Source of the DNA: a virus | Taxonomy: Duplodnaviria; Heunggongvirae; Uroviricota; Caudoviricetes | Direction: 5' to 3' (one strand) | IMG/VR virus record: IMGVR_UViG_2690316161_000023 | Coordinates: 1 to 47,532 of that record | Length of the DNA: 47,532 bases | In this document: in pieces, positions 1,065 through 46,960 of the stretch | Layout of the letters: every line of letters begins with the position of its first letter | Position numbering within the stretch: the stretch's first letter is position 1 | Notes under the pieces: model-generated | Told to the model about the DNA's origin: nothing | What the model saw: the letters and a program-made list of their open reading frames with translations, nothing else | Databases searched by the model: none | Translations under genes and position numbers: made by a program

Positions 1065-1098
1065 GATAAAAAGAGACCGAACACGATTCCTGTTTTCG
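1065..1098. repeat. attR: displaced host sdsR 3'-end remnant (core about 1075-1093)
   Basis: aaaaagagaccgaacacgattcctgttttcg matches 46929-46960 with 2-3 mismatches; ends in the cggtctcttttt form recalled for the host sdsR terminator. Confidence 0.6.
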
Positions 1099-1397
1099 TC
1101 AACAAACGACAAAATCCTTTAGAATTAATGTGTTAAATAAATTTATGCTCATCTTTTAATCCCTAACACATACCATTACATATTAATACATTCAATTAGT
1201 TACCATTTTTTTCGAGTTTTTTAGAGAAATTTTCGGGAATATTTCAGGTCAATCCATGCATACACAAGCAATTCCTGTATTGAATAATTCCGTAGCAATT
1301 ATGTAAAATCACCTTCGGCTGATTTTCATTCAAACTCGCGCTATCGAACGTCCATCAGCCAGCCGTGGCACGTTCTTGCATACGACGTGCTGCGGTT

Positions 1398-1987
1398 TCA
1401 TTTATCTCCGACCGGAAACTTCTTATACAAAGTCGATACGCCAACATCATAGATGATCTCCACATTCTGGCGATGAACTCCTGATGCAATTAGTCGCCCG
1501 GCCTGCGCCCATTGTTCTGATGAAAGTTCGGGACGGCGACCGCCAATTCGTCCCTGTGCGCGAGCAGCTTCCAGTCCAGCTTTTGTTCGTTCAACAATCA
1601 GTTCACGCTCCATTTCAGCCAGGGCACCCATGACATGAAAAAAGAAACGGCCATTGGGGTGCTGGTATCAATACTGTCAGTCAGGCTTCGGAAATTCACG
1701 CCACGCTGACGCAACTCTTCTATCAGCGTAACAAGATGCCGCATACTGCGCCCCAACCTGTCCAGCTTCCAGACAACCAGAGTGTCTCCTGCCGATAGTG
1801 TCCTGAGCAGTTTTTTAAGCCCCGGTCTGTCGGACTTAGTGCCACTGATTTTATCCTCAAAAACCCGCTCACATCCCGCGCAGTTCAGTGCATTACGTTG
1901 CAGATCGGTGTTCTGGTCATTTGTTGATACGCGTACATAGCCAATAAGCATGTTAAATCCCCTTGGTAAAAGCAGGAATGATGCCAT
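1398..1987 (-). pseudogene. pin: Pin/Gin/Hin-family serine DNA invertase, frameshifted
   Basis: Two overlapping ORFs (1598-1987 catalytic part MLIGYVRVSTNDQ...; 1398-1631 C-terminal HTH part MGALAEMERELI...) in different frames; the join reads PMAVSFFMSW where family members have PMGRFFFHVMG, consistent with loss of one G. Confidence 0.8.
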
Positions 1988-2520
1988 TTGCTTGTTATTT
2001 CTGCATTTTCATAAACGTTGGTTTGGGAGAAGGCTCTGCATTACCGGTTGGGGTGCCTGTTCCGTGGCCTTCAGCCACTCCGCCAACAGGCTGGCTGAAA
2101 TGCAACGGTGCCGCTTTTTCTGCTGAAGAATACCCGGAACTGGCAAAGGCTTATCCGGCAAATAAATTGCCTGATTTACGTGGTGAGTTTATTCGTGGCT
2201 GGGATGACGGGCGTGGTATTGATGCTGTACGTGCCTTGCTAAGTCTTCAGAATGGAGGAGTGGAATCACACACCCACCAAGGGCAGCTCTTCAGAGTTAG
2301 TGATTATCGTACAAAAGAAATACCAGCATCAGAAGTTATGGGAAGAGGATATATTGCAAGCCTGACGCCGGGTGCTGATAGCCCACTTGATTTTGATGAT
2401 TATCCTGTATCTTCTAATCCAAATGGATATTTTGTCGGGAATCAGAGAACAACAGCATATGGGATAAATGAAACCCGTCCACGGAATATTGCATTTAACT
2501 ATATCGTGAGGGCTGCATAA
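1963..2520 (+). CDS. Alternate tail-fibre C-terminal segment (Sv'-like), not fused to a fibre N-terminus in this copy
   Basis: Residues from [15 protein letters not shown] onward are identical to the C-terminus of the 285-aa fibre at 7502-8359; the upstream part of the ORF is not fibre sequence. Confidence 0.6.
   Translation: MVKAGMMPFACYFCIFINVGLGEGSALPVGVPVPWPSATPPTGWLKCNGAAFSAEEYPELAKAYPANKLPDLRGEFIRGWDDGRGIDAVRALLSLQNGGVESHTHQGQLFRVSDYRTKEIPASEVMGRGYIASLTPGADSPLDFDDYPVSSNPNGYFVGNQRTTAYGINETRPRNIAFNYIVRAA
2006..2031. other. hix/gix-like 26-bp crossover site (outer site of copy A, invertase side)
   Basis: ttttcataaacg-tt-ggtttgggagaa; the ggtttgggagaa half is shared with the site at 7992-8017. 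Confidence 0.5.
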
Positions 2521-3122
2521 TGGATAACGCTGTATTAAATAGCGAGTTTATTGCTACAAAGGCGGGGAATATTACCGTCTATAACTATGATGGCGAAACA
2601 CGGGAATATATTTCCACATCAACTGAATATCTTGCCGTTGGTATCGGTATCCCTGCATATTCCTGTTTAGATGCCCCTGGCACATACAAAGCTGGTTATG
2701 CAATCTGCCGATCTGTAGATTTTAACTCATGGGAATATGTGCCAGACCATCGCGGTGAAATCGTCTTTAGCACCGAAACAGGAGAATCAAAAGAAATCAC
2801 AGCTCCGGGTGATTACCCTGATAATACAACCACTATCGCCCCGTTAACGCCATACGATAAATGGGATGGTGAGAAATGGGTGACGGATACCGAAGCACAG
2901 CATAGCGCCGCAGTAGATGCAGCAGAAGCACAGCGCCAGTCACTGATTGATACTGCAATGGCTTCAATCAGTCTGATTCAGCTGAAATTGCAGGCCGGAC
3001 GTAAACTGACGCAGGCAGAAACAACCAGCCTTAACACTGTGCTGGATTACATTGACGCGGTGACGGCAACAGATACCAGCACCGCGCCGGATGTCATCTG
3101 GCCTGAACTGCCGGAGGCGTAG
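2520..3122 (+). CDS. Tail fibre assembly protein (cognate to the Sv' segment)
   Basis: 200-aa ORF directly after the fibre C-terminal segment; identical copy at 6900-7502. Confidence 0.7.
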   Translation: MDNAVLNSEFIATKAGNITVYNYDGETREYISTSTEYLAVGIGIPAYSCLDAPGTYKAGYAICRSVDFNSWEYVPDHRGEIVFSTETGESKEITAPGDYPDNTTTIAPLTPYDKWDGEKWVTDTEAQHSAAVDAAEAQRQSLIDTAMASISLIQLKLQAGRKLTQAETTSLNTVLDYIDAVTATDTSTAPDVIWPELPEA

Positions 3123-3534
3123 GCCATTCAATATCTGGCGCACTGGCGGTATCGACCAGCTCCAGTGCGCCCAGATAATCCAGCCACAAATTATATTGTG
3201 CCAGTTCCTCACCTTTCAGACGACCAATAGCTGCTTTACCAGGCCATTGCTTACCGTTCATGTAATCATTGGCTAAATCTATTCTTTTTTGCTTCTCCAC
3301 ATCAGCAGCGACAATTAATTCTTCTCGTGTAAGTGGAGGAATATCACCCCATGCTGGCATGTTATTTAAAGTTATAAGTTGCTTACCTGTAGGGGGAGTG
3401 CCGGAAAACTCATAATAAATGCTGTCACTAACGTTAATGGCATCATGTGGCCAACAATTATTATCAACATAATCAGCCTGCCACTCGATGGCATAAAAAC
3501 GGGACTCAGATGGACTGAACACAAAACGATTCAT
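3094..3534 (-). CDS. Tail fibre assembly protein (cognate to the Sv segment)
   Basis: 146-aa ORF directly after the fibre gene 3536-4201; identical copy at 6488-6928. Confidence 0.7.
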   Translation of the reverse strand: MNRFVFSPSESRFYAIEWQADYVDNNCWPHDAINVSDSIYYEFSGTPPTGKQLITLNNMPAWGDIPPLTREELIVAADVEKQKRIDLANDYMNGKQWPGKAAIGRLKGEELAQYNLWLDYLGALELVDTASAPDIEWPTPPAVQAR

Positions 3535-3535
3535 A

Positions 3536-6174: not shown

Positions 6175-6189
6175 ATTGGTTTAAGAGCA
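6164..6189. other. Duplication junction formed on a crossover-like site
   Basis: tgatttaacgca-tt-ggtttaagagca: gp46 3' sequence joined to the Sv-side half-site. Confidence 0.5.
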
Positions 6190-6210
6190 AGCGGGCAGTA
6201 CACCGATAAT

Positions 6211-6486
6211 TTGTTATTTACAGGTCCTGATGGTCTTAAGATTCAGGTGTTTCGCCGGACGCTCGCAAATTTGACTACTGTCGGTGTAGTAAATTCTGTG
6301 CCAGTGACTTTCCCTGTCCCGTTCCCTGTTAATTGCTGGGGCGTTTTTTCTACCAAATTAACATGGGTTCAGATAACTAACTCATGCGAGTGGGTAAGCA
6401 ATACAGGATTTACCGCTCAGGTCATGATGAATATTGCTGTAAATACAAACACCTCAGACGCTATGTTTTTAGCTATAGGATATTAA
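6211..6486 (+). CDS. Sv-type tail fibre C-terminal segment, inverted and unfused (copy B)
   Basis: 91 aa identical to the C-terminus of the fibre at 3536-4201 but on the opposite strand; homology begins at the site near 6178. Confidence 0.6.
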   Translation: MLFTGPDGLKIQVFRRTLANLTTVGVVNSVPVTFPVPFPVNCWGVFSTKLTWVQITNSCEWVSNTGFTAQVMMNIAVNTNTSDAMFLAIGY

Positions 6487-6487
6487 T

Positions 6488-6928
6488 ATGAATCGTTTTG
6501 TGTTCAGTCCATCTGAGTCCCGTTTTTATGCCATCGAGTGGCAGGCTGATTATGTTGATAATAATTGTTGGCCACATGATGCCATTAACGTTAGTGACAG
6601 CATTTATTATGAGTTTTCCGGCACTCCCCCTACAGGTAAGCAACTTATAACTTTAAATAACATGCCAGCATGGGGTGATATTCCTCCACTTACACGAGAA
6701 GAATTAATTGTCGCTGCTGATGTGGAGAAGCAAAAAAGAATAGATTTAGCCAATGATTACATGAACGGTAAGCAATGGCCTGGTAAAGCAGCTATTGGTC
6801 GTCTGAAAGGTGAGGAACTGGCACAATATAATTTGTGGCTGGATTATCTGGGCGCACTGGAGCTGGTCGATACCGCCAGTGCGCCAGATATTGAATGGCC
6901 TACGCCTCCGGCAGTTCAGGCCAGATGA
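6488..6928 (+). CDS. Tail fibre assembly protein, inverted copy (copy B)
   Basis: Identical to 3094-3534, opposite strand. Confidence 0.7.
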   Translation: MNRFVFSPSESRFYAIEWQADYVDNNCWPHDAINVSDSIYYEFSGTPPTGKQLITLNNMPAWGDIPPLTREELIVAADVEKQKRIDLANDYMNGKQWPGKAAIGRLKGEELAQYNLWLDYLGALELVDTASAPDIEWPTPPAVQAR

Positions 6929-7502
6929 CATCCGGCGCGGTGCTGGTATCTGTTGCCGTCACCGCGTCAATGTAATCCAGCACAGTGTTAAGGCTGGTTG
7001 TTTCTGCCTGCGTCAGTTTACGTCCGGCCTGCAATTTCAGCTGAATCAGACTGATTGAAGCCATTGCAGTATCAATCAGTGACTGGCGCTGTGCTTCTGC
7101 TGCATCTACTGCGGCGCTATGCTGTGCTTCGGTATCCGTCACCCATTTCTCACCATCCCATTTATCGTATGGCGTTAACGGGGCGATAGTGGTTGTATTA
7201 TCAGGGTAATCACCCGGAGCTGTGATTTCTTTTGATTCTCCTGTTTCGGTGCTAAAGACGATTTCACCGCGATGGTCTGGCACATATTCCCATGAGTTAA
7301 AATCTACAGATCGGCAGATTGCATAACCAGCTTTGTATGTGCCAGGGGCATCTAAACAGGAATATGCAGGGATACCGATACCAACGGCAAGATATTCAGT
7401 TGATGTGGAAATATATTCCCGTGTTTCGCCATCATAGTTATAGACGGTAATATTCCCCGCCTTTGTAGCAATAAACTCGCTATTTAATACAGCGTTATCC
7501 AT
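6900..7502 (-). CDS. Tail fibre assembly protein cognate to Sv' (copy B)
   Basis: Identical to 2520-3122, opposite strand. Confidence 0.7.
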   Translation of the reverse strand: MDNAVLNSEFIATKAGNITVYNYDGETREYISTSTEYLAVGIGIPAYSCLDAPGTYKAGYAICRSVDFNSWEYVPDHRGEIVFSTETGESKEITAPGDYPDNTTTIAPLTPYDKWDGEKWVTDTEAQHSAAVDAAEAQRQSLIDTAMASISLIQLKLQAGRKLTQAETTSLNTVLDYIDAVTATDTSTAPDVIWPELPEA

Positions 7503-8359
7503 TATGCAGCCCTCACGATATAGTTAAATGCAATATTCCGTGGACGGGTTTCATTTATCCCATATGCTGTTGTTCTCTGATTCCCGACAAAATATCCATT
7601 TGGATTAGAAGATACAGGATAATCATCAAAATCAAGTGGGCTATCAGCACCCGGCGTCAGGCTTGCAATATATCCTCTTCCCATAACTTCTGATGCTGGT
7701 ATTTCTTTTGTACGATAATCACTAACTCTGAAGAGCTGCCCTTGGTGGGTGTGTGATTCCACTCCTCCATTCTGAAGACTTAGCAAGGCACGTACAGCAT
7801 CAATACCACGCCCGTCATCCCAGCCACGAATAAACTCACCACGTAAATCAGGCAATTTATTTGCCGGATAAGCCTTTGCCAGTTCCGGGTATTCTTCAGC
7901 AGAAAAAGCGGCACCGTTGCATTTCAGCCAGCCTGTTGGCGGAGTGGCTGAAGGCCACGGAACAGGCACCCCAACCGGTAATGCAGAGCCTTCTCCCAAA
8001 CCAAGGTTTTCGAGAGCCGTTTTCACTGTGCCGTCCGATTTGATATCGCCAAACGGATTTTTGCGGCTCAGGTATTCAACAGCAAACCCCGATCCAAGCA
8101 ATTCAACAAAACCGGGCAGATCACCATTATCAAGCACATCCCGTTGCGTTTTGTCACTTACAAACTGGGCCAGAGCTGCAGCAATAAAGCTGGCCTGTCG
8201 AATGGCTTTGTTCACCTGCGCACTGGATGCTTTCCCTGCTGTAAATCCGGATAAAAGCGCAGGCAACGCTTCCCATTCCTCCTGCGACATAACATTGGCA
8301 TTTCGATCCGTTGCAAACGCTTTAAAGTCATTTTTCGCCATCAGAGTAATACTCCCCAT
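7502..8359 (-). CDS. Tail fibre protein, constant N-terminus fused to the Sv' variable C-terminus (copy B)
   Basis: 285 aa; same N-terminus as 3536-4201; C-terminus identical to the segment at 2020-2520. Confidence 0.72.
7992..8017. other. hix/gix-like crossover site inside the tail fibre gene (copy B)
   Basis: ttctcccaaacc-aa-ggttttcgagag. Confidence 0.6.
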
Positions 8360-9021
8360 GCTCCTACATCAAAACCACTGATGAATTCGTTATCCATATC
8401 AAAACCAAAAAATTTTGAGCCTTCCGATGGGGTTTCCACCGAAGGTGTTTCAATGCCACCCGCCCATACCCCGGCGGCTTTTACTGTGAGATACCCCTGT
8501 TTAATTGCCGCAATTAACTCACGCGATACATCTGAAATATCAGTATCAGGAAAGACCCAGACCGATATCGTCATGTCCTGGTTATCGACTATCTGCATTC
8601 GCAGCCCGGATCCTGCTGTTGCAGCGTCAAGAATTGCCGGAAGAGAATCATTCCGTCCATCCCAGTTATTAATCGCAATCTTCGCTTTAAGAATGACACG
8701 ATAAGTTTCATCGCTGAGGTACATGTATCCGGAATCAGGATCGTATGGTCCCTGCCATACCCCCTGATCATATCCAAGCCCGTCGGTATCCCAGCTGAAA
8801 TAGACACCTGAGATAGGCTGGCTGACAACACGGCTACGTCCGATCCACAATCCCAGAATGTCAAGTTGCACACCAACCGCAGAGTCAATATCAAATGCAG
8901 TAATCAGCCCTCTGGTGGCAGCCGCAACATCAATAAGCGGCCGGGTCATCAGATCAACATGCGCAAGAAATTTAGGTTTAGTGGCGTGGTAGTTCGTGAT
9001 TAGTTCGGTGTATTTGCTCAT
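8341..9021 (-). CDS. Baseplate/tail protein (Mu gp48 / P2 gpI-like), copy B
   Basis: Identical to 4183-4863. Confidence 0.55.
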
Positions 9022-10217
9022 GACTCCACCGTTATAACGATATTTTCCGGGGTACAGGACGCAGATTCGTTGTATCTGATATCAATGTTTGATGACGACA
9101 AAGCCCCCGGGGATTTCCCAATCGTCAGTTCCTGAATATCGTAATAGCGTGCATTCCCGCCACTCACCACGCCAAGATTCGCCGGTGAGTAAATGCGACT
9201 TAAAAGGACCGAATCACCAATCATCAGACTATTGATATAGTCGGAAATAGCCTGCTGGATCTGCTGCCCTATCTGTGAGGTATAACCCGTAAAAACTTTT
9301 AATTTAATCCGGGCATAAACAGGCACATCACTGGAACGCGAGAATTTGATTACATGGGGATTGCCGTATTTATCCGGAACCGTAACGGATGTTGTACCGT
9401 GAGTGGCTGTCCCCTGGCCTTTATTCCCTCTGATAGCCTGAGCAATATCCGTCACATCACCGCCATCCACAATTACAGCAACAGAGTGTGGCGGTAACCC
9501 GTTACCGTCCTCCGAACCAGTATCGTTTTCATAGAGTTTGTGGCGGGTTACACCGGTAACATTAGAAACAGCACCATCCAGTGCTTCAAATGGGGTTATT
9601 GATGGCAACGCAACACTTTGCGACTGACGGATACGTAACTCCGCGTCAGTTTCTGCCGGAGTGCCCACAGTAGCCGCAGCAGGATTAGTTACCGAAACCC
9701 AGCCACGGGTTGGCGTATTAATTTCAGTGATAGTTCCAGCCAGCGCCGCCACTGCACCACTGACGGAACATGTTGCGGTCGCCATCACTGTACCATCCAC
9801 GCCGACCACTACTGAAGCAGGCAAACGCCATATCACATTATTACTGTCTTTCACGCTGCCATTAATGATGGTTGTTCCGGCAGTTCCTGCAAGAAGCAAA
9901 TCAACCGTAGAGTTCGTCGCGCCTTTACGTGAAATACCATTTATTTTCACGTTACTGGTCAGTGCAGCCCCATAGCCGGTTGCCGGTGAAAAACAGTTGT
10001 AGACAGTTATCGCCATATTATTGGCATCATGAATCGCCAGCGCCATCAGAGCCACCATCTGGCCGTCTTTGCTGTCCGGTTCGAGGTAGGCATCACTGCC
10101 ATAAATCTGCTGAAAATAGCTAATCAGGGTGCTGAGTATCGTCTGATAATCAGGCGCACTGATCCCCTCCGCGGTTACCTTTGCAGATAAACCGAGAGAA
10201 TCAAGGTTCAGAGCCAT
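9018..10217 (-). CDS. Baseplate J-like protein, copy B
   Basis: 399 aa; one substitution relative to copy A. Confidence 0.65.
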   Translation of the reverse strand: MALNLDSLGLSAKVTAEGISAPDYQTILSTLISYFQQIYGSDAYLEPDSKDGQMVALMALAIHDANNMAITVYNCFSPATGYGAALTSNVKINGISRKGATNSTVDLLLAGTAGTTIINGSVKDSNNVIWRLPASVVVGVDGTVMATATCSVSGAVAALAGTITEINTPTRGWVSVTNPAAATVGTPAETDAELRIRQSQSVALPSITPFEALDGAVSNVTGVTRHKLYENDTGSEDGNGLPPHSVAVIVDGGDVTDIAQAIRGNKGQGTATHGTTSVTVPDKYGNPHVIKFSRSSDVPVYARIKLKVFTGYTSQIGQQIQQAISDYINSLMIGDSVLLSRIYSPANLGVVSGGNARYYDIQELTIGKSPGALSSSNIDIRYNESASCTPENIVITVES

Positions 10218-10570
10218 TACGCCTCCGATGTAACAGTCGTTATTCCATAAAGAGTGTCGATTTCAGCGGAAAACATGACACGTCGGGTCGTGGTATCCAC
10301 TGTCGTATTGAAAGAGAGGATTGATTTAACGCCCCGCGTTTCGAGGATGCGCTTACGGATCGCCAGGTTGTAGGTTTCCGGCTTCTGCTTTCCGAGCACG
10401 GACTGGATCCACGGAGTCCCTTCGGTGGTGTCGAGAAACCATTGCCCATACCACAATTCGAATCGCGTTTTTACCGCCTGCGCCACGGCCTCCGGTGAGT
10501 TAATCAGCCAGGTGTCATCACCGCTGCCAAAGGTGTAATCGCCATCGGCGTCTTCACGTCTGTATCGCAT
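10217..10570 (-). CDS. Baseplate protein (P2 gpW / Mu gp46-like)
   Basis: 117-aa ORF between the gpV-like and J-like genes. Confidence 0.55.
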   Translation of the reverse strand: MRYRREDADGDYTFGSGDDTWLINSPEAVAQAVKTRFELWYGQWFLDTTEGTPWIQSVLGKQKPETYNLAIRKRILETRGVKSILSFNTTVDTTTRRVMFSAEIDTLYGITTVTSEA

Positions 10571-11322
10571 CAGTTTACCCCATCGGTATTGCTTCCACCG
10601 CGCTGAACACCGCCATGAGTGTGCGTATCATCGATTGACTTGCCGTTAGCCTTAACGCTCCCCAAGAACTCAACAGCACCAGTGATTTTTGAAGCCACAC
10701 CAGAAACAACAGACCCCACCATGCCACCCATCCAGGTTAACAGGCCATGAATGGTTACTTTCTCAGAAAAATCAGCCAGAGGGGCAACCACATCAAGACC
10801 ACCCGGAGCGACAATTTTAATTTTCCTGGTGTCAGGATTAAGCTCAAAATAGGTGCTGCCGTCGTCACTACGCAACTGTGTGGCACTGGTATTAATACCG
10901 CTAATCTTCCTCGCCTGCGACTGGGGACCGACAATACAAAACGCATCCGATAAATCATGCATTCTGTCATCAACAGGCTCCTGTATCCCGCCGTTCTGCC
11001 ACCAGAAATCAATACAACGATCGGCAAAAACGACAAGACACTCATCCCTGGCTTTTACCGGAAAAGTCAACGTACAGCCTCCTCCGCGCGGGAATACCAC
11101 TGGCACATCCACCAGCAATGGGTAATTTTGGGTAATGCGGTTGCCGTCATTATCCTTTTCAACCGAACGTATAGCAGGCTGCACAACTGCCGTAACCGCA
11201 TCAGGATCGAATGACTGAATAATGCCAGGCAAGGCGACACGGATCTGGTTCTTTGTTGTTTCCCGTTCAGATTTGAATGTTTCGGCAAGGTCGCCGCAGC
11301 GGGTCTGGTCAGATACTGCCAT
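10570..11322 (-). CDS. Baseplate assembly/spike protein V-like
   Basis: 250 aa with a C-terminal THTHGGVQRGG motif resembling P2 gpV. Confidence 0.65.
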   Translation of the reverse strand: MAVSDQTRCGDLAETFKSERETTKNQIRVALPGIIQSFDPDAVTAVVQPAIRSVEKDNDGNRITQNYPLLVDVPVVFPRGGGCTLTFPVKARDECLVVFADRCIDFWWQNGGIQEPVDDRMHDLSDAFCIVGPQSQARKISGINTSATQLRSDDGSTYFELNPDTRKIKIVAPGGLDVVAPLADFSEKVTIHGLLTWMGGMVGSVVSGVASKITGAVEFLGSVKANGKSIDDTHTHGGVQRGGSNTDGVN

Positions 11323-36167: not shown

Positions 36168-36980
36168 TCACTTTTCCGACACAATACGACCGGATGAATC
36201 GACAATCTGTCGGACAATATCCCGGTGTTTGTTCAGCTCCCGCAGCGCGGCGCAGACACGCTCCCACTTCTGGACATGATTTTTCGCCCGACGCAGTTCG
36301 CGATTTGCCATATGCAGCGATGGTAAAAACAGATTATCCGCTTGCGTTTCAGTGAACGATGGCAACGACTTCACAATGTCCGCTACAGTTTCTGTTTTAA
36401 TATCTTCCTGTGTAGCAGCTTCCTGTACTGGTAACGCAACACCTGCTGGCTGAGGAAGGGGTTTACCATCAGTTTCCGCTACCGATGCTGCTTTCGGCTC
36501 TGCTGGTAAATTATCGCCCGGTATGCAGTAACGAAATTTACCGCCCTGATTTACGCGAATCAGACGACCTTTGCTGATTGCCATTGCCAGCGTTGAAGCC
36601 ACTTGGCGTGATGTGGTACCAAACAATGTAGCCAGCTCATCAGCCGTTTGTGGTCCGCGTTGTTCAATCGTTGCGGTTAAATCGCACTCTGAGATTTTCG
36701 CTACTGTTGCTGTGGTGGTTTCTTCCGGCAGTTCTGCCTGCGCTGGCTGTTCCTGCTGAACGTTGTTATCAGCCACACGCCAGGTGTACGCGCTTTTATC
36801 AACAAAACCAGCCTTTTTCAGTTCCCATAGTTCGTTCAGCACTTCTTCACGACTGATATCAAGTCGCGCAGCAAGTTCTATGGATGTGGCTTTTCCCATT
36901 GCTTTCAGTGCGTCAAAAACAGTCTCCATTAAAACTTCCTCCCGGTAAAAATTACTTCTCAATTCCTGGCTGACCAACAT
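36168..36980 (-). CDS. Hypothetical protein with two winged-helix-like segments
   Basis: 270-aa ORF downstream of the replication genes. Confidence 0.35.
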
Positions 36981-37698
36981 TCGGACGCCAGCTCTCCCAG
37001 TTAAAATTCACCCATCGCCCTCCGTTCATGGTCATGCGATCCATAATCCGCTCGCCGAGCAATGTTTTCATGGCCTCATAGTTCAGGTTTGTCAGCATCC
37101 CCACGCTGCGCATCGACGCTGTCCGGCGATCAACAATCTGGTGCAGCACCACCTGCTCGTTTTTCGTCTCGCGCTGAATGCCAATTTCATCAAGAACCAG
37201 CAGATCCACTTCGCACAGCTCCCGCAAAAATTTTTCGCCTGACTGCCCGTCGTCATAGCTGGCGTGCAGGGCGCTCATAACATCAGCCACGGTAACCACA
37301 ATCACTGTCTGACCGTCTTTCAGCAGGCGATTCCCTATAGCTGCCGCTAAGTGATTCTTCCCGGTACCAGGTTTTCCGCTGAACGCAAAATTTGTACACC
37401 CGGTCATCAGTTCATCGGCGATGGATTTCGCCTGGCTTAACGCGTATCGCTGGCCGTCGTTCAGCACCTGGTAATTCGCAAACGAGCATTTACGGTGCAA
37501 CGGCTGGATGCCAGAGCGATTCAGAATTTTTTCCACCCGCAACTGACGATTCAGGCGGTTGATCTCCTCGCAACGTTTCTGGCCTTCAGCAAGTTGCCAC
37601 TCACGCCACTCCGCAACCGTTCTGAATGGGGCGGTTACATGTGGTGGGGTCAGTCTGCGGATACGCTCCAGAACGCCTCCTGTCGCAATATTTTTCAT
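36952..37698 (-). CDS. DnaC-like helicase loader (AAA+ ATPase)
   Basis: Walker [16 protein letters not shown] and Walker B LLVLDEIG. Confidence 0.8.
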
Positions 37699-37704
37699 GG
37701 TCTG

Positions 37705-38493
37705 TTACCCCCTGAAGCCTGGCGGGATCGCACTGTCCGGCAACGAGACGGTGTTAACCTGTCGGAGCAACGTCTCAGGCCGAACACCTTTCGGCGCGAA
37801 CAGGCCCTGGTATTCATTGGCGATGCTGTGTCGAATCACCTGCTCAGGTGTAAAACCCTGCTGACGGAATTTTTCCAGTTCCCGTATCGCCCCGTTAGCG
37901 CCCTGCTCCGTTCGAATCGGTTTTCGCAATGCCTGTCTGAACCGGACCCACTCATGCCAGAGTGTTTCCGGCAACCAATCGGGCAGCTCAATAGCCTCCG
38001 GCTCGAATTTTTTAGACGCTCGTTTTTGGCGAGGGGGATTTAGGGGGAGATCAGTATTTAGATCTTCCTCTTCCTCTTCCTCTGGTAACGCTTTTTGATC
38101 CGTTTGTGTAACGCTGGCAGCGTTACCTTTTCGTTTCAGTTCGCGTATTTTTGTAACTCGCTCGTTTGTAACCGCCCGTTTTTTTGAGCTTTTTCCGTTA
38201 TGACGTTCAAAGTTAGGTAGAGAAAGCCCAACGTCATTTTCGACCAGCCATCCAACCTGAATTAACGCATCAGCAAAACCAGCCATAAAAGTGATGCGAT
38301 CTATTGCACTTTTTGTAACGCCGCGAGCGTTACAATCTGCATTACCGTCTATCATTTGTTGATCCGCCCATGCCCAGAAGCGAATAACCTTCCCTAATGC
38401 GGCATCTGGATCAATATTCAGAATCTCAGCAAGCCTGAATATTTCCGGCTTATCCGGCGTAATAACCTCGAGCTTTATCCAGTTTGAAGCCAT
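37705..38493 (-). CDS. Replication initiation / replisome organiser protein
   Basis: 262-aa ORF immediately upstream of the DnaC-like gene; acidic linker. Confidence 0.5.
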   Translation of the reverse strand: MASNWIKLEVITPDKPEIFRLAEILNIDPDAALGKVIRFWAWADQQMIDGNADCNARGVTKSAIDRITFMAGFADALIQVGWLVENDVGLSLPNFERHNGKSSKKRAVTNERVTKIRELKRKGNAASVTQTDQKALPEEEEEEDLNTDLPLNPPRQKRASKKFEPEAIELPDWLPETLWHEWVRFRQALRKPIRTEQGANGAIRELEKFRQQGFTPEQVIRHSIANEYQGLFAPKGVRPETLLRQVNTVSLPDSAIPPGFRG

Positions 38494-38570
38494 TTGTTTT
38501 CACCTTGTAACGCTCGCGTCGTTACATTTAACTGATACCGAACAAAACAATCCGGCACGATTAATTTCAA

Positions 38571-38996
38571 TCAATGCACTACGACAGAATCGCCGGGCGA
38601 CCCACCACCGCTGAAATGTGCTTTCCGGTAAACGGCCTGGACTGCATCATCATGCGCATCAATTGCCGTACTCAACGCTTCCTGCGCCGCCAGTAATGCA
38701 CGGCGTTCCAGGGTATCGAAGATGCAGAGTCGGTGACGCAGCTCGCGCGGAAGAATTGCCAGAACCGCAGGGATCAGTTTCTGAATTTTTTCCCTTTGCG
38801 CTTTCGTTTCACCTTTCAACCAACGGTGATAGATATTCTGCTGATTGTTCCAGTCCTTGCCTGGTACAAGGGGCAATTCGCCGCCCCCCCCCTGGCGCAG
38901 ATATTCTTCAGTAATTGCGTTAGCGACCCACGCCTGCCCTTTTTCGGCTGCCAGGGCTAACAACACTGATTCGATGTGCTTATGCCTGATTTTCAT
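38571..38996 (-). CDS. YdaT-like protein (CII-position; reported toxin in Rac)
   Basis: 141-aa ORF following the Cro-like gene; resembles recalled Rac YdaT. Confidence 0.5.
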   Translation of the reverse strand: MKIRHKHIESVLLALAAEKGQAWVANAITEEYLRQGGGGELPLVPGKDWNNQQNIYHRWLKGETKAQREKIQKLIPAVLAILPRELRHRLCIFDTLERRALLAAQEALSTAIDAHDDAVQAVYRKAHFSGGGSPGDSVVVH

Positions 38997-39235
38997 GAAT
39001 CAACCGCTCCTATGCTGTTTTCGCTATGCTTACCGTCTGGGGGGAATACATCGTCAAGTCCACAATGAGCGCCAAGCCGATTAAGGGTAGAAACAATTTT
39101 TCTGCACTCCTCTAGTCCAGGGGTACGAAAATTTGCTTCGTAATTTGCCAGTCGGCTTTGTATCCACCCTAACTGAACAGCAAGTTGTCTTTGAGACAGC
39201 CCAAGCTGTTTTCGATATGTTGAAATTTTGTTCAT
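38993..39235 (-). CDS. Cro-like HTH regulator (YdaS-like)
   Basis: 80 aa with HTH (LGLSQRQLAVQLGWIQSRLANYE); divergent from the repressor gene. Confidence 0.6.
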   Translation of the reverse strand: MNKISTYRKQLGLSQRQLAVQLGWIQSRLANYEANFRTPGLEECRKIVSTLNRLGAHCGLDDVFPPDGKHSENSIGAVDS

Positions 39236-39331
39236 TGAAAACCTCCGATGACAATTTTAAACACACCTTGTGTTATATGGTCAAGCTATTTTGTGTTTTA
39301 TGTAAATCACGATTCGTGATACAAGGATGCA
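39236..39331. promoter_or_regulatory. Immunity-region divergent promoter/operator region
   Basis: Between divergent repressor and Cro-like genes; palindromes aacacaccttgtgtt (about 39250-39264) and atcacgattcgtgat (about 39296-39310). Confidence 0.45.
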
Positions 39332-39751
39332 ATGGAAAAAGAAAACGAAAAAATTGCCGCTAGTAGGCTCAATGACAAAATTGCAATGCGTCTTAAAGAG
39401 CGCAGGCAGAAGCTTGGTTTATCTCAAGGAAAACTTGCTGAAATCTGCGGATGGACGCAATCGCGTATAGGTAACTATGAGGCGGGCAGCAGAAATGTTG
39501 GAGTGCATGACGCTGTCATATTGGGAAAGGCACTTGGCATATCTCCTCCTGAGCTCCTCTTTGGAGAACAGGAATCTTCTGAATTGTGGTTAAATGAATC
39601 CCAACGAAAACTTCTTGAGTTGTTTAACCAGCTACCGGGCTCAGAACAACAACGAATGATTGAGCTATTTGAAGTCCGGCTAAAAGAAATCGATGAGTAT
39701 GTAGAAAAATATTTGAGAGGCAGGCTTAAAGATAATCCCCCACCGGAGTAA
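39332..39751 (+). CDS. Prophage repressor (XRE-family HTH, RacR-like)
   Basis: 139 aa with HTH (LGLSQGKLAEICGWTQSRIGNYE); divergent from the Cro-like gene. Confidence 0.65.
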   Translation: MEKENEKIAASRLNDKIAMRLKERRQKLGLSQGKLAEICGWTQSRIGNYEAGSRNVGVHDAVILGKALGISPPELLFGEQESSELWLNESQRKLLELFNQLPGSEQQRMIELFEVRLKEIDEYVEKYLRGRLKDNPPPE

Positions 39752-40056: not shown

Positions 40057-40209
40057 ATGGATACTATCGATCTTGGCAACAACGAATCTCTGGTATGTGG
40101 CGTGTTTCCCAATCAGGACGGCACATTCACCGCCATGACGTATACCAAAAGCAAAACGTTTAAAACCGAAGCTGGCGCACGTCGCTGGCTTGCCAGAAAT
40201 ACTTGCTAA
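40057..40209 (+). CDS. Small early protein (YdaF-like)
   Basis: 50 aa from internal ATG with RBS gagg; MDTIDLGNNESLV... Confidence 0.4.
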   Translation: MDTIDLGNNESLVCGVFPNQDGTFTAMTYTKSKTFKTEAGARRWLARNTC

Positions 40210-40617
40210 TCCATTATTTGGATTAATTCAATATTCTCGCTGTAGGGGTATAGCAGAAACCACCAAAGCCCGGAGGTGGTGAAATAAAACCGGGCACAAC
40301 ACGAAGGCGCATTTCCGATATCCATAAAGAGTCGGTCTTGTCTGTTAAATTTAAATGGTGGGAGTGCGCCTCCGGTTGTAAATAACGACATTGCTATGTG
40401 TAGTCTTTGGCGGCATCAGTTCTACTCCGTGGCTGCCCTGCCGCCCCTTTTTAAAGTGAATTTTGTGATGCGGTGAATGCGGCTAAGCGCACGCGGCACA
40501 GTTAAAAGCATCAGTGTTATGGGTGGATTATCCGGCGTTAATTGTTAACTGGTTAACGTCACCTGGAGGCACCAGGCACCGCATCGACAAAATTCATTTG
40601 TAAAAATGGAGATAATT

Positions 40618-40839
40618 ATGATTGCTCATCACTTCGGAACTGATGAAATACCACGTCAGTGTGTGACCCCTGGCGATTATGTTCTTCATGAAGGTCGGAC
40701 ATATATCGCCTCGGCAAACAATATTAAAAAGCGAAAACTTTATATTCGTAGCCTGACTACAAAAACATGCATTTCTGACTGCATGATTAAAGTCTTCCTC
40801 GGTCGTGATGGTTTACCTGTAAAGGCGGAGTCATGGTAA
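40618..40839 (+). CDS. kilR: KilR-like killing protein (cell-division inhibitor)
   Basis: 73 aa [29 protein letters not shown]... matching recalled Rac KilR; start at internal ATG with RBS ggag. Confidence 0.65.
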
Positions 40840-41009
40840 TGACTAAGAAAATAAAATGTGCTTATCACCTTTGCAATAAAGAAATTGAAGAAAGCAAAAT
40901 CATTACAAGACCACTTCATTTCATGCGTGGAGTTATACCAACGACGGAAATGAAAAAATATTGTAGTGAAATCTGTGCCGAAAAAGACCAGATGGCACAC
41001 GAACTTTAA
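40839..41009 (+). CDS. Small Cys-rich protein (YdaE-like)
   Basis: 56-aa ORF below the ORF-track size cut-off, found by eye; start overlaps the kilR stop. Confidence 0.4.
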   Translation: MTKKIKCAYHLCNKEIEESKIITRPLHFMRGVIPTTEMKKYCSEICAEKDQMAHEL

Positions 41010-41083
41010 TTAACTGACTATCCGAAACTGAATTTATGCCAGCAATGGCAGGGATTCGCTCAACCTTAATTAAGGAGAAAAAC

Positions 41084-41359
41084 ATGATTACCAGTTATGA
41101 AGCCACTGTTGTTACTACTGATGACATTGTTCACGAAGTTACCCTGGAAGGAAAGCGTATTGGCTACGTGATTAAGACAGAAAATAAAGAAACCCCATTC
41201 ACTGTGGTTGATATCGACGGTCCATCAGGCAACGTTAAAACACTTAACGATGGTGTTAAAAAAATGTGTCTGGTGCACATAGGAAAGAATCTGCCCGCAG
41301 AAAAAAAAGCCGAATTTCTGGCAACTCTGATTGCAATGAAATTAAAAGGTGAAATCTGA
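41084..41359 (+). CDS. RacC-like small protein
   Basis: 91 aa from internal ATG with RBS aaggag; directly upstream of recE. Confidence 0.45.
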   Translation: MITSYEATVVTTDDIVHEVTLEGKRIGYVIKTENKETPFTVVDIDGPSGNVKTLNDGVKKMCLVHIGKNLPAEKKAEFLATLIAMKLKGEI

Positions 41360-41458
41360 AAAAAAGAAAGCCTGCACACTGTGCAGGCCTGAGTGAAGAA
41401 CCTGGGACATTTATTCATCACTCGCATTAATTTTAATCTGAGTTGAGGTTAAAAAGCA

Positions 41459-44134
41459 ATGAGCACCGATAAACAAGTTTACCCACTGTATTACGAAGCA
41501 AAAAATGACAAAGTAAGAAAACGTCTCGGTATTAAAGGCGGTTTCTACTGGGCTGAAGCGAAAAAATTATCCATTGCCATCTCCCGTGGTGCTGTTGCGA
41601 TTGACGATGCTGGCTACGATGAAGATGACTTTAAAAAACCTGTTCGCGTCAATTTGCCCGTTGTTGATGACCTTCCACCAGAAGGCGTATTTGATACGGA
41701 ATTCTGCAACCGTTACGAAAAAGGCGGGGAAGATGGCATCACAATGGTATTTATCGCGCCCTCATCCTCTGCGCAGGACAAGCCAGCCAGCACTGACAAT
41801 ACCAATGTTAATGGCGAAGACATGACGGAGATTGAGGAGAATATGCTACTCCCGATTTCCGGTCAGGAGCTGCCCATTCGCTGGCTTGCTCAACACGGCA
41901 GCGAAAAACCGGTAACGCACGTTTCACGCAACGAACTACAGGCATTACACATTGCACGAGCTGAAGAACTACCAGCTGTTACTGCCCTGGCTGTTTCCCA
42001 CAAAACCAGCCTGCTCGACCCGCTGGAAATTCGCGATCTCCACAAACTGGTGCGTGATACTGACAGAGTTTTCCCTAATCCAGGCAATTCAAGCCTGGGG
42101 CTGATGACTGCTTTTTTCGAAGCATACCTGGACGCAGACTACACCGATCGCGGTCTGCTGACAAAAGAGTGGATGAAAGGAAACCGTGTTTCACGCATCA
42201 CGCGCACGGCTTCCGGCGCTAATGCTGGCGGCGGGAACCTCACCGATCGCGGCGAAGGTTTCATTCACGATCTGACGTCACTGGCGCGCGACGTAGCCAC
42301 TGGCGTACTGGCTCGTTCAATGGACGTGGACATTTATAACCTTCATCCGGCACACGCTAAACGTGTCGAGGAAATTATCGCTGAAAATAAACCGCCCTTT
42401 TCTGTTTTCCGCGACAAATTCATCACCATGCCTGGCGGGCTGGATTATTCCCGCGCCATCGTGGTTGCGTCCGTAAAAGAAGCACCAATTGGGATCGAGG
42501 TTATCCCCGCACACGTCACTGAATATCTTAACAAAGTACTGACTGAAACTGATCATGCCAACCCTGATCCAGAAATCGTGGATATTGCCTGCGGTCGTTC
42601 CTCTGCCCCGATGCCGCAGCGTGTAACAGAAGAAGAAAAACAGGATGATGAAGAAAAACTGCAACCATCTTGCGCAATGGCAGATGAACAGGCAACGGCT
42701 GAAACAGTGGAACCGGATGCAACTGAACATCATCAGGACACGCAGCCGCTGGATGCTCAGTCACAGGTAAATTCTGTTGATGCGAAATATCAGAAACTGC
42801 GGGCAGAACTCTATGAAGCCCGGAAAAACATTCCGCCCAAAAATCCTGTCGATGCAGACAAATTACTGGCTGCCTCTCGCGGAGAATTTGTTGAAGGGAT
42901 TAGCGACCCGAATGATCCGAAATGGGTTAAGGGAATTGAAACCCGAGATTCTGTGAACCAGAACCAGCCCAAATCGGAACAAAACAACCAGAAAGCGGAA
43001 CAAAACAGCCAAAATGCACAGAAAAATGAGCCAGAAACGAAACAATCTGAACCAGTAGCGCAACAGGAACCGGAAAAAGTCTGTGCCGCCCGCGGTCAGA
43101 GCGGTGGCGGCAACTGCCCTGATTGTGGCGCGGTGATGGGCGACACCACATATCAGGAAACCTTTAATGAAGAAAATCTGGATGAATCTCAGGAAAAAGA
43201 TCCGGAGGAAATGGAAGGCCCTGAACATCCGCACAATGAGAATGCTGGCAGCGATCCGCATCGCGATTGCAGTGATGAAACTGGCGAAGTCGCAGATCCC
43301 GTAATCGCAGGAGACATAGAGCCTGGTATTTATTACGGAATTTCGAATGAGAATTACCACGCGGGTCCCGGTGTCAGTAAGTCTCAGCTCGACGACATTG
43401 CTGATACTCCGGCTCTGTATTTGTGGCGTAAAAATGCCCCAGCGGACACCACAAAGACAAAAACGCTCGATTTAGGAACCGCTTTCCACTGCCGTGTACT
43501 TGAACCGGAAGAATTCAGTAACCGCTTTATCGTGGCACCTGAATTTAACCGCCGTACAACCGCCGGAAAAGAAGAGGAGAAAGCGTTTCTGATGGAATGC
43601 GCAAGCACAGGAAAAACGGTTATCACTGCCGAAGAAGGCCGGAAAATTGAACTCATGTATCAGAGCGTTATGGCTTTGCCGCTGGGTCAATGGCTTGTTG
43701 AAAGCGCCGGACACGCTGAATCATCAATTTACTGGGAAGATCCTGAAACAGGAATTTTGTGTCGGTGCCGTCCGGACAAAATTATCCCTGAATTTCACTG
43801 GATCATGGACGTGAAAACCACAGCGGATATTCAACGATTCAAAACGGCTTATTACGACTACCGCTATCACGTTCAGGATGCATTCTACAGTGACGGTTAT
43901 GAAGCACAGTTTGGTGTGCTGCCAACTTTCGTTTTTCTGGTTGCCAGCACAACTGTTGAATGCGGACGTTACCCGGTTGAGATTTTCATGATGGGCGAAG
44001 AAGCAAAACTGGCAGGCCAGCAGGAATATCACCGCAATCTGAGGACCCTGGCTGACTGCCTGAATACCGATGAATGGCCAGCTATTAAAACGTTATCACT
44101 GCCCCGCTGGGCTAAGGAGTATGCAAATGACTAA
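41459..44134 (+). CDS. recE: Exodeoxyribonuclease VIII (RecE)
   Basis: 891 aa; C-terminal nuclease domain; overlaps and precedes recT. Confidence 0.8.
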
Positions 44135-44936
44135 GCAACCACCTATCGCAAAAGCCGATCTGCAAAAAACCCAGGGAAACCGTGCACCAGCAGCAGTAAA
44201 AAATAACGACGTGATCAGCTTTATTAATCAGCCATCAATGAAAGAGCAACTGGCAGCAGCTCTCCCACGCCATATGACGGCTGAACGAATGATACGTATC
44301 GCCACCACAGAAATTCGTAAGGTTCCGGCGCTAGGAAACTGTGACACCATGAGTTTTGTCAGTGCGATCGTTCAGTGTTCACAGCTCGGCCTTGAGCCAG
44401 GTAGCGCCCTCGGCCACGCATATTTACTGCCTTTTGGTAATAAAAACGAAAAGAGCGGTAAAAAGAACGTTCAGCTAATCATTGGTTATCGCGGCATGAT
44501 TGATCTGGCTCGCCGTTCTGGTCAAATCGCCAGCCTGTCAGCCCGTGTTGTCCGTGAAGGTGACGAGTTTAGTTTTGAATTTGGCCTTGATGAAAAGTTA
44601 ATACACCGCCCGGGAGAAAACGAAGATGCACCAGTGACCCACGTCTATGCTGTCGCAAGACTGAAAGACGGAGGGACTCAGTTTGAAGTTATGACGCGCA
44701 AACAGATTGAACTGGTGCGCAGCCAGAGTAAGGCTGGTAATAACGGGCCATGGGTAACTCACTGGGAAGAAATGGCAAAAAAAACGGCTATTCGTCGCCT
44801 GTTTAAATACCTGCCTGTCTCAATTGAAATCCAGCGTGCAGTATCAATGGATGAAAAGGAACCACTGACAATCGATCCGGCAGACTCCTCTGTATTAACC
44901 GGGGAATACAGTGTAATCGATAATTCAGAAGAATAA
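44127..44936 (+). CDS. recT: RecT single-strand annealing protein
   Basis: 269 aa from internal ATG ([17 protein letters not shown]...). Confidence 0.85.
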
Positions 44937-44980
44937 TTCAGCCTGGCGGTGTAATGCACCGCCAACGTGAGACAGTTTTT

Positions 44981-45187
44981 ATGACAAAAATTATGAGATA
45001 TGACGATGTTAAACCATGTCCGTTTTGTGGTTGTCCATCTGTTACGGTGAAAGCAATTTCAGGATATTACCGGGCAAAATGCAACGGATGCGAATCCCGA
45101 ACTGGCTATGGTGGAAGTGAAAAAGAAGCACTCGAAAGATGGAATAAACGAACTACTGGAAATAATAATGGAGGTGTTCATGTATAA
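44981..45187 (+). CDS. ralR: Restriction alleviation protein (Lar/RalR-like)
   Basis: CPFCGC...CNGC zinc-ribbon-like motifs; start taken at MTKIMRY. Confidence 0.55.
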   Translation: MTKIMRYDDVKPCPFCGCPSVTVKAISGYYRAKCNGCESRTGYGGSEKEALERWNKRTTGNNNGGVHV

Positions 45188-45368
45188 AATTACTGCCACT
45201 ATTGAAAAGGAAGGTGGCACTCCTACTAACTGGACAAGATATTCAAAATCTAAATTAACGAAATCAGAATGCGAAAAAATGCTCTCAGGGAAAAAAGAAG
45301 CAGGCGTTTCCAGAGAGCAGAAAGTAAAGCTGATAAATTTTAATTGCGAGAAACTTCTGTCCTCGTGA
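45180..45368 (+). CDS. Small protein (YdaC/RcbA-like)
   Basis: 62 aa from ATG preceded by RBS ggaggtg. Confidence 0.4.
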   Translation: MYKITATIEKEGGTPTNWTRYSKSKLTKSECEKMLSGKKEAGVSREQKVKLINFNCEKLLSS

Positions 45369-45468
45369 GTTGCATTATATACAAATTAGAACTTCATAGC
45401 TGATTATTAAAAATCAACCACATCCGCCAGTATTCTGTATATTTACTGGCGGTCATATCGTAAGAGGT

Positions 45469-45756
45469 ATGGCAATGAATCTTGTGACACTCAAAACGTG
45501 GGGAAAACTCAGATATCCGGATAACCCACCATCAATATCAACGCTGAGACGATGGGCAAGGAATGGAAACATTTATCCTGCACCTGAACTACACGGGAGG
45601 AGTTACAGGGTGGTTCCGGAGGCTTTCTATATCAACCCAAATAAGGTTGATACCGATATAACACACCATCAGCCTAATGGGCGACAAGGGAGAGACAGTC
45701 CGTTACTGGAGAAGTTAAAACATGCAGCGGAAAAAATACGATCCCAATTTGCCTAA
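45469..45756 (+). CDS. Excisionase-like protein
   Basis: Small basic protein immediately upstream of and overlapping the integrase gene. Confidence 0.55.
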   Translation: MAMNLVTLKTWGKLRYPDNPPSISTLRRWARNGNIYPAPELHGRSYRVVPEAFYINPNKVDTDITHHQPNGRQGRDSPLLEKLKHAAEKIRSQFA

Positions 45757-46798
45757 AAACTTAACATATCGAAGGAGGGACAAAGCATATTACTGGCGCA
45801 ACCCTCTGACGAAAGAAGAATTTACACTAGGTAAAATTTCAAGAAGAGATGCAGTAGCGCAGGCAATTGAAGCAAATCATTATATATACAAAAACTACTC
45901 TCCTGCTGCCTTAATTGAAAAGCTTAAAGGGTTCGACTCATTTACTATGGCAGACTGGATTGAACGTTACAAAACGATTCTTATAAGGAGAAAAGTGTCC
46001 AGAAATACTTATAAAATTCGGGTAAATCAACTGGAGACAATAAAAGAAAAATTGGGGGAAATTTTACTGACAGAAATAACCACTCGCCATATTGCCGAGT
46101 TTCTTGATTTGTGGATTGAAGGAGGGAAAAACACAATGGCAGGATCAATGCGTTCTGTGTTGTCTGATATGTTTCGTGAGGCCATTGTTGATGGACGTAT
46201 ATCTCAAAATCCAGTAACGCCAACAAGAGCACCGAAAATAGTAGTTACAAGAGAACGACTGAAACTAAAGACATACAACTGCATCAGGGAGGCAGCAGAT
46301 CAACTTCCGGCATGGTTCCCATTAGCTATGGATTTAGCCCTTGTAACAGGACAACGTCGCGAAGACATAACGAATATGCGCTTTAGTGATATTTATGATG
46401 ATCGTCTCCACATCAGGCAAATTAAGACAGGAATGATGATTGCTATCCCCCTGTCACTCAGCCTTCCTGTCGCTGGTCTACGGCTTGGTACAGTAGTTGA
46501 ACAGTGCCGCCTGGTAAGCCGGGGAGATTATCTAATCAGTGCCGGGATTAGAAAAAACAGCCCTGACGGCAGCATTCACCCGGATGGCCTGACAAAAAAA
46601 TTTGTCGCAGCCAGAAAATTAACAGGTATCCAGTTCAGTGAAAACCCACCAACTTTTCACGAGATCAGAAGTCTGGCTGGACGATTGTACAAAGAAACAT
46701 GTGGAGAAGAATTTGCTCAGCGTCTACTTGGCCACACATCGGAGAAGACAACAAAAATGTATCTTGATGAGAGAGAAAAAACGTACTTACTACTCTGA
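45722..46798 (+). CDS. Tyrosine integrase (lambda Int family)
   Basis: 358 aa; lambda-Int-like N-terminus ([25 protein letters not shown]) and C-terminal catalytic region (...[15 protein letters not shown]); adjacent to the att repeat. Confidence 0.85.
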
Positions 46799-46928
46799 TT
46801 TTAACGTAAATGGATTGTTAAATGTATTTTGGTTGTGATATAACCAAAAAAGACCGGAATACAGAAATTCGAGTAAATTTCGGGGAATTTCGGGAAGACG
46901 TTTGCAACTAATTGATTTTAAATACAAT

Positions 46929-46960
46929 TAAAAAAAGACCGAATACGATTCCTGTATTCG
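46929..46960. repeat. attL: core inside the sdsR terminator stem (core about 46937-46955)
   Basis: aaaaaaagaccgaatacgattcctgtattcgg, imperfect match to 1065-1098. Confidence 0.6.

Follow-up and report, generated by a model that had tools for sequence, protein, structure and literature searches.

Introduction

The prophage analyzed here lies in a stretch of 47,532 nucleotides of viral DNA (Caudoviricetes; IMG/VR record IMGVR_UViG_2690316161_000023, positions 1 to 47,532), referred to in the following as the window, and several described systems should be considered as references for it. The Rac prophage carried by Escherichia coli K-12 (NC_000913, positions 1411899-1434958) is integrated at ttcA, and our criteria for Rac-like elements were those used in earlier work (PMC4632033, PMC5917428). 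Full-size, ttcA-integrated Rac-like prophages have been described previously, e.g. the LT-IIa-encoding Rac-SA53 (KU052037; PMC5917428). The Salmonella phage SEN34 (Brunovirus, NC_028699) is inducible by mitomycin C, forms plaques, presents a contractile tail in electron microscopy and was described as a myovirus by morphology whose genome is lambdoid (PMC5261728). Likewise, a spontaneously released, plaque-forming E. coli myovirus had vB_EcoM-683R1 as its best match (PMC12945033). Finally, phage attachment in the last 23 bp of ryeB, also termed sdsR, is known from the work of Balbontin et al. 2008, as presented in PMC7380047, and from PMC3333887; in Salmonella, lysogens at this site have less RyeA and more RyeB (PMC7380047).

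Our analysis indicates that the element in the window is very probably a temperate lambdoid phage of mosaic make-up, structurally intact, contractile-tailed and ~41.7 kb in length, which carries a lambda-type integrase (Int) and excisionase (Xis), occupies the last ~25-32 bp of sdsR and shares one module with Rac. The original prediction had taken it for an apparently complete relative of the defective Rac prophage. Judged by the sequence comparisons given below, it is a mosaic with one Rac module rather than an undecayed Rac.

Results

Relation to Rac

When K-12 Rac was compared with the window by blastn, five stretches were aligned, amounting to ~7.2 kb or 15-16% of the element. These are 36480-38066 (the 3' part of ydaU, ydaV and ydaW, with 93.8% nucleotide identity), 38573-39002 (ydaT, 92.6%), 39893-40188 (the ydaG/ydaF region, 76-84%), 40235-41466 (kilS, kilR, ydaE and racC, 88%) and 41797-45418 (recE, recT, ralR and rcbA, 92.6%). 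At the protein level, 12 of the 28 Rac coding sequences (CDS) have orthologues, with 73-99% amino acid identity by tblastn. YdaT, YdaV and YdaW are 94%, 96% and 98% identical to their Rac counterparts, and YdaU is 85% identical in its C-terminal 119 residues only, the N-terminal half of this initiator being unlike that of K-12. Both elements present the order rcbA-ralR/RalA-recT-recE-racC-ydaE-kilR-(KilS/DicF)-ydaF ... ydaT-ydaU(C-terminal half)-ydaV-ydaW. From rcbA to kilR the two are colinear with 88-93% nucleotide and 73-99% amino acid identity, and the RalA and DicF/KilS RNAs are present as well. Of the features by which Rac membership is defined, the left-arm early operon and the YdaT-YdaU-YdaV-YdaW block are thus found in the window.

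The other defining features, namely integration by IntR/XisR at ttcA, RacR-YdaS immunity and the ynaA-lomR-stfR-tfaR late region, were not found. In the same comparison of the 28 Rac CDS, intR, xisR, sieB, racR, ydaS, trkG, ynaK, ydaY and ynaA have no counterpart in the window, while stfR, tfaR and pinR gave local matches only (33-47%), those of stfR and tfaR falling in fibre tips. No BLASTP comparison of the corresponding control proteins was significant (Int against IntR, E=1.4; the repressor against RacR, E=2.4; the Cro-like protein against YdaS, no alignment), and Pfam assigns Int and Xis to the lambda type. The late region of K-12 Rac is a deleted lom-stf-tfa remnant, an arrangement that we take to be lambda-like and from which the window differs; none of the surviving Rac late genes (ynaA, lomR, stfR, tfaR) matches the SEN34-type virion module found here.

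These results should be considered when referring to the original prediction. All the early genes that it listed (int, xis, ralR, recT, recE, racC, kilR, repressor, Cro-like, YdaT-like and replication genes) are present and in the predicted order, but its reading of int, xis, the repressor and the Cro-like gene as Rac-like does not hold. Whole-prophage alignment gives the same picture, as the early-left and replication genes are similar to those of Rac and the remainder is not. A complete relative of Rac is thus borne out in its Rac-type early-left and replication genes and in its structural completeness, and not in integration, immunity or late genes, which are unrelated.

In Rac-SA53, KilR, YdaE, RacC, RalR and YdaT are 93-97% identical in amino acid sequence to those of the window and RecE is 59% identical, and this prophage also shares the DUF1367/YbcO/Q-like genes and hok. 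Unlike the window, it lies at ttcA with IntR, has DicA/DicC-type immunity and carries toxin cargo, and its virion module is unrelated, with baseplate J alone matching, at 27%.

Integration site

Positions 1-1098 of the window match the uninterrupted K-12 region yebW-pphA-sdsR/ryeA-yebY at 99.2%, and positions 46929-47532 match the other flank of this region at 98.5%. The two flank matches share 32 bp in K-12, and this stretch is doubled in the window, as attL (1067-1098, a duplicate of the sdsR 3' end) and attR (46929-46960, the 3' end of the intact sdsR), with 29 of the 32 bases alike between the two cores. The prophage is thus located between pphA and yebY, in the 3' end of sdsR. The boundaries originally predicted, 1075-46955, were correct to within ~10 bp, and the predicted locus, sdsR rather than the ttcA site of Rac, was confirmed. 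No tRNA was found in a tRNA scan of the window.

According to Rfam, SdsR occupies 46930-47029 (minus strand) and RyeA 46926-47070 (plus strand). The att core, AGACCGAA(C/T)ACGATTCCTGT(A/T)TTCG, overlaps the 3' end of SdsR, in agreement with attachment in the last ~23 bp of ryeB. As the prophage brings a copy of the core, sdsR remains whole, in the copy beside yebY. For ryeA the situation is different, since its annotated start in K-12 lies 37 nt left of the core. In the lysogen, the ryeA promoter and first bases would therefore be left at attL, ~46 kb from the remainder. Indeed, ryeA/sraC is split by the integration (1030-1098 and 46929-47163), the attR part lying downstream of int on the same strand. 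PhiW104 and other ryeB/sdsR phages of Salmonella, as far as PMC7380047 presents the findings of Balbontin et al. 2008, use the same site, with the sdsR 3' end internal to ryeA; the host is different, and the comparison covers the attachment site.

The lambda-type pair, excisionase and tyrosine integrase, is encoded at 45475..46798 on the plus strand (xis, 45475-45756, PF07825 (Exc); int, 45722-46798, Arm-DNA-bind_1 and Phage_integrase domains).

True size of the prophage

Self-comparison of the window revealed a direct repeat of 3840-6174 at 7998-10332, with 99.96% identity, and an inverted repeat of 2013-3846 at 6176-8009. The layout resembles two tandem units of 4.16 kb, in which the invertible fibre segments have opposite orientations; each unit also holds the wedge and baseplate J genes and a 3' portion of the gp25-like gene. 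Only one public contig, CYBY01000012.1 of GCA_001285845.1, has this duplicated layout. It equals window positions 1-18341 except at 6175, where it has an N, so that the novel junction corresponds to a scaffold gap of one N; the window is evidently CYBY01000012.1 with this N replaced by A. The raw reads of this assembly are probably those of ERR137798, the Logan contigs of which match the window at 100%. None of 5426 complete E. coli genomes has the junction, nor do IMG/VR and the metagenomes of the Joint Genome Institute (JGI). In two contigs of 5 Mb, GCA_040813095.1 and GCA_040813075.1, the region of window 1-18341 is single-copy and 99.99% identical, with one segment orientation in each. The wedge/J copies differ by a sole base, C at 4997 and T at 9155 (Asp and Asn in baseplate J). 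No other recorded contig has the C allele, which is therefore probably a mistake in the artefactual copy.

The extra unit, 2013-6175 (invertible segment, wedge, J and gp25-like 3' fragment), is a scaffolding or gap-filling artefact, and the true prophage therefore measures ~41.7 kb, rather than 45.9 kb as assembled. Artefacts of this type are documented. According to the EC958 genome paper, an invertible fibre segment present in mixed orientations gives alternative contigs, the merging of which makes artefactual duplications in phage regions (PMC4134206).

Invertible tail-fibre segment

The invertible segment proper (6176..8016) contains alternative C-terminal exons of the tail fibre and two tfa genes. 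A 26-bp crossover site of the pix type (Pin/Gin-type) is found at 7991-8016 and the pin-proximal site, in the assembled layout, at 2006-2031; the sites at 2006, 3833 and 7991 agree with 18-19 of the 20 consensus positions. The two fibre products have 121 N-terminal residues in common. The expressed fibre (279 aa from the annotated start, with a Collar domain) and its Tfa chaperone (200 aa) are encoded at 6900..8341 on the minus strand. Both orientations of the segment were found across near-identical prophages (our loci L014 and L017), and both types of fibre-to-wedge junction were assembled from one read set.

Of the features of a Din-family (Gin/Cin/Pin) switch, the element thus has the 26-bp inverted sites but not an adjacent intact invertase. 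The pin gene, encoding a Din-family serine invertase (1398..1951, minus strand), is a pseudogene with a 1-bp deletion (GGG to GG near 1640), which leaves open reading frames (ORFs) of 117/129 aa and 77 aa and cuts the catalytic (resolvase) domain from HTH_7. Several other assemblies have the identical frameshift, as does a Logan contig from ERR137798. As both orientations occur even though pin is broken, the segment evidently still inverts, presumably through an invertase supplied in trans, for which Phi4 of EC958 provides a precedent (PMC4134206).

Virion, packaging and lysis genes

The integrity of the ORFs was examined by translating the CDS of the relatives P4 and PEC209, as annotated by the Prokaryotic Genome Annotation Pipeline (PGAP), and comparing them with the window. 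Every CDS with a counterpart in the window, ~60 genes, is full length and in one frame there, with pin as the sole exception. The lysis, packaging, head and contractile-tail modules of the original prediction were all recovered in this way, and the virion functions are backed by Pfam and PHROG assignments.

All late genes are on the minus strand. The baseplate genes (8341..14072) encode wedge, baseplate J, a gp25-like sheath initiator, spike, a 241-aa moron, hub, plug and a Dit-like protein. They adjoin the genes for the tape measure/lytic transglycosylase, DUF6889, tail chaperone, tube (DUF3277/KPP10_Orf10) and sheath (DUF3383) at 14072..18290. The neck and head genes (18294..25185) comprise terminator, adaptor, DUF4054, major capsid (PF09950), cement, DUF2213, a Mu-F-like gene and the portal (Phage_portal_3). 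TerL (Terminase_3/PBSX type) and TerS (phrog_370) are encoded at 25185..27303, and the lysis genes at 27527..28881 specify a lambda-family holin, a GH24 endolysin and overlapping Rz/Rz1 (LysC) spanins. A Q-like antiterminator (DUF1133; phrog_753), DUF1364 (YbcO) and DUF1367 occupy 30236..31673.

The 241-aa moron (11388-12113, minus strand) lies in a variable slot between baseplate hub and spike, where relatives carry other genes. This version is common to 12 complete E. coli genomes, and it has no family in Pfam, PADLOC or PHROG.

Relatives and distribution

From portal to baseplate wedge, the window is colinear with SEN34, at 65-96% amino acid and ~80% nucleotide identity, and SEN34 likewise has a lambdoid regulatory layout and a contractile tail (PMC5261728). 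The two differ in the terminase (TerL matches at 37% over partial length), and SEN34 has another exonuclease/recombinase set, O/P-type replication, another integrase and another host, and is devoid of an invertible fibre segment. The virion module of Brunovirus, defined by Phage_portal_3, the PF09950 capsid, DUF3383 sheath, DUF3277 tube and baseplate J, is present in the window. By the criterion of the International Committee on Taxonomy of Viruses, members of a genus share ~70% or more nucleotide identity genome-wide. The product of identity and coverage to SEN34 is 0.32, below this level.

Calculated over the prophage, the same product is 0.80 for PEC209, 0.44 for 611R5, 0.15 for Rac and 0.12 for Rac-SA53. 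The PEC209 prophage shares the sdsR site, int/xis, the Rac-type early genes, the repressor, the Cro-like gene and the virion module. Its terminase is of the SEN34 type, unlike that of the window and of strain P4, which is of the Terminase_3/PBSX type. In vB_EcoM-611R5, the virion proteins are 96-100% identical to those of the window (tape measure, 75%) and the module is 97.7% identical in nucleotides, while the early region is unrelated. The vB_EcoM-683R1 record has this virion module, too. A literature search on the vB_EcoM-6xxRx records found no source paper. Both the sdsR-site prophages (PEC209, P4 and the Z1323CEC series) and vB_EcoM-611R5, 606R2 and 683R1 carry other morons, as nin-region cargo and at the baseplate hotspot at 11.3-12.1 kb.

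The join ralR-rcbA-xis-int-attR-sdsR was found in 228 of the 5426 complete E. coli genomes. The left half of the window is covered to 80% or more in 37 complete E. coli genomes and the right half in 15, and the relatives are 41-43 kb in length. Many public E. coli genomes have the same mosaic at sdsR, and its kind is already known.

Early genes and immunity

The gene order is lambdoid throughout, i.e. int-xis-recombination-kil-repressor on one side and cro-cII position-replication-nin region-Q-lysis-terminase-head-tail on the other. The Rac-type early-left operon (40057..45368, plus strand) contains ydaF, the DicF/KilS small RNA (40395-40446), kilR (40618-40839), ydaE, racC (41084-41359), recE (41459-44134), recT (44127-44936), ralR (44993-45187) with the RalA antisense RNA (45186-45364), and rcbA. 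The immunity switch (38996..39751) consists of a Cro-like helix-turn-helix (HTH) gene at 38996-39235 on the minus strand and a divergent gene for a 139-aa HTH_3 repressor at 39332-39751 on the plus strand, the product of which is 36% identical to the short HTH repressor of SEN34. The Rac-type genes of the right operon (36171..38996, minus strand) are ydaT (38574-38996), the gene for the YdaU-like initiator, ydaV (DnaC-like) and ydaW (DUF1627); the replication genes lie at 36955-38493.

A direct repeat of 70 bp with 83% identity (34360-34427 and 35625-35694) surrounds a block of small nin-region genes. As this block differs from that of relatives, the repeat may mark a boundary of module exchange.

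Accessory cargo and regulatory RNAs

Two cargo genes with a 4-nt overlap and a low GC content (33%) are found at 32825..34308 on the plus strand, the products being a protein of 310 aa and a membrane protein of 184 aa. A change from A6 to A7 shifts the frame of the second gene and cuts its product to 85 aa, and the same change is present in GCA_001265995.1 and ERR137798. GPT24-02 is an example with both genes intact. As the pin and cargo frameshifts were both met again in assemblies made independently and in Logan data, homopolymer sequencing errors were rejected as their source and both are considered genuine. The 310-aa protein has no Pfam or PADLOC family and, in PHROG, only the 'unknown' family phrog_15676; its AlphaFold2 model (mean predicted local distance difference test score, pLDDT, 75) gave no fold match in the PDB at E<0.001. 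The pair (a 310-aa soluble and a 178-184-aa membrane protein) is kept on lambdoid prophages, and is also found on a plasmid-like Yersinia contig with ParA/ParG/ArdC genes and beside a P4-like element in Pantoea. Further copies of the cassette are at L009 2818-4301, L021 2434-3902 and L024 6001-7484. We regard the pair as a candidate exclusion or defence module.

A hokD/sok type I toxin-antitoxin locus is located at 32283..32567 on the minus strand. Between the Q-like gene and the holin gene, Rfam identified isrK, a C4 antisense RNA and c4-a1b1 target elements just upstream of an ORF6N (antirepressor-like) gene (29381..30213, minus strand). This layout resembles the c4-ant unit of P1 and the isrK-anrP unit of Gifsy-1, and the ORF6N gene is a candidate modulator.

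Discussion

Proposed working scheme

Based on homology and gene order, the following scheme may be proposed. The lambda-type Int/Xis pair would integrate the phage into the sdsR (ryeB) end, and the 139-aa HTH repressor would keep the divergent promoter region closed. Upon derepression, the rightward operon would supply the Cro-like protein, YdaT (in the CII position), the YdaU-like initiator and the DnaC-like loader YdaV, while the leftward operon would give the KilS/DicF RNA, KilR, RecE/RecT, RalR/RalA and RcbA and, after these, Xis and Int. The Q-like antiterminator would then allow a single long late transcript, through isrK/C4-ORF6N, holin, endolysin, spanins and TerS/TerL to the SEN34-type head, sheath, tube and baseplate. 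The tip of the tail fibre would be switched by the Pin-type invertible segment, with catalysis in trans, as its own pin is frameshifted. By analogy with SEN34 and the vB_EcoM-683R1-like myovirus, the prophage may be inducible.

Weighing of the readings

The reading of the element as an intact temperate phage has some drawbacks that need to be considered. The repressor has no S24 autocleavage domain in Pfam, and the window contains no exact LexA box (CTGT-N8-ACAG), while one-mismatch sites are at chance level and none is at a promoter; SOS control through a LexA box was therefore dropped from the scheme. Near-identical independent assemblies cover positions 1-18341 and 23754-44011, the latter being 100% identical in GCA_001265995.1, and 18342-23753 and 44012-47532 lie outside them, in an assembly that holds at least one scaffolding artefact. 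The true frameshifts in pin and in the cargo membrane-protein gene mean that some decay has begun, and intact ORFs alone cannot reveal inactivating point mutations in essential proteins. Excision, replication and particle formation are likewise read here from gene content. All of these points lower the confidence in an intact phage. A rival reading is that of a cryptic, non-inducible prophage that is complete in looks only and is kept vertically for its cargo (hok/sok, RalR/RalA, KilR, RecET), which would fit the two frameshifts, the lack of a recognised SOS-responsive element among the repressor domains and in the LexA-box scan, and the near-identical copies in several assemblies, which may be clonal. 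Nonetheless, ~60 genes are full length relative to those of relatives, among them all those for virion, lysis, packaging, replication and integration, the att cores, int and xis are intact, both frameshifts fall in accessory, dispensable genes, and phages with the same virion module have been recovered as plaque-formers (PMC5261728; PMC12945033). We thus consider a cryptic prophage unlikely, though it deserves to be kept in mind.

Two further readings are much weaker. If the 4.16-kb duplication were real, the invertase would have joined the pin-proximal site to a quasi-site in the gp25-like gene of a sister genome, with the segment in both orientations. At 10322-10347, in the gp25-like gene, 12 of the 20 crossover consensus positions are indeed present, a score reached by 0.097% of window positions, and in exact register with the breakpoint at 10332. 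Cin is known to use quasi-sites (Iida and Hiestand-Nauer 1987, as listed in PMC4134206), and the two units are not separated by a minus-strand terminator. However, the match was spotted post hoc, and we judge it a coincidence. With an N at the junction in the sole contig of this layout, a junction missing from all the collections searched, single-copy prophages in both 5-Mb contigs, a J allele peculiar to the extra copy and a documented type of artefact, a Pin-made tandem duplication was rejected as very improbable. If it were true, with pin frameshifted, both tail-fibre alleles would be made constitutively, giving a fixed dual host range rather than phase variation. Equally, the element could be the intact counterpart of Rac, i.e. 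the form of K-12 Rac before its decay, merely integrated elsewhere. Colinearity from rcbA to ydaW, with 88-94% nucleotide identity across the greater part of the aligned stretches and 73-99% amino acid identity, and the shared RalA and DicF/KilS RNAs speak for such an origin. Yet only ~7.2 kb is aligned, nine Rac genes (intR, xisR, racR, ydaS, sieB, ynaA, ynaK, ydaY and trkG) are without counterpart, the lom-stf-tfa late genes of Rac do not fit a tail with a SEN34-type baseplate, and Rac-SA53, which is full-size and at ttcA, has another virion module. This origin is hardly credible, and a mosaic, structurally intact lambdoid phage is the reading that we retain.

Implications

In practical terms, the duplication serves as a warning for tail-fibre mining in draft assemblies, as a scaffolding artefact at an invertible segment inflates the size of a prophage and doubles its baseplate and fibre genes. 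The biological novelty of the element is small, since lambdoid mosaicism, recET on other backbones, SEN34-type virions with lambdoid control and integration at sdsR are all documented. In annotation, the name "Rac" should be avoided for this element. As Rac, Rac-SA53 and the present prophage differ in their late genes, Rac-type early genes ride on several virion backbones, a case of ordinary lambdoid mosaicism.

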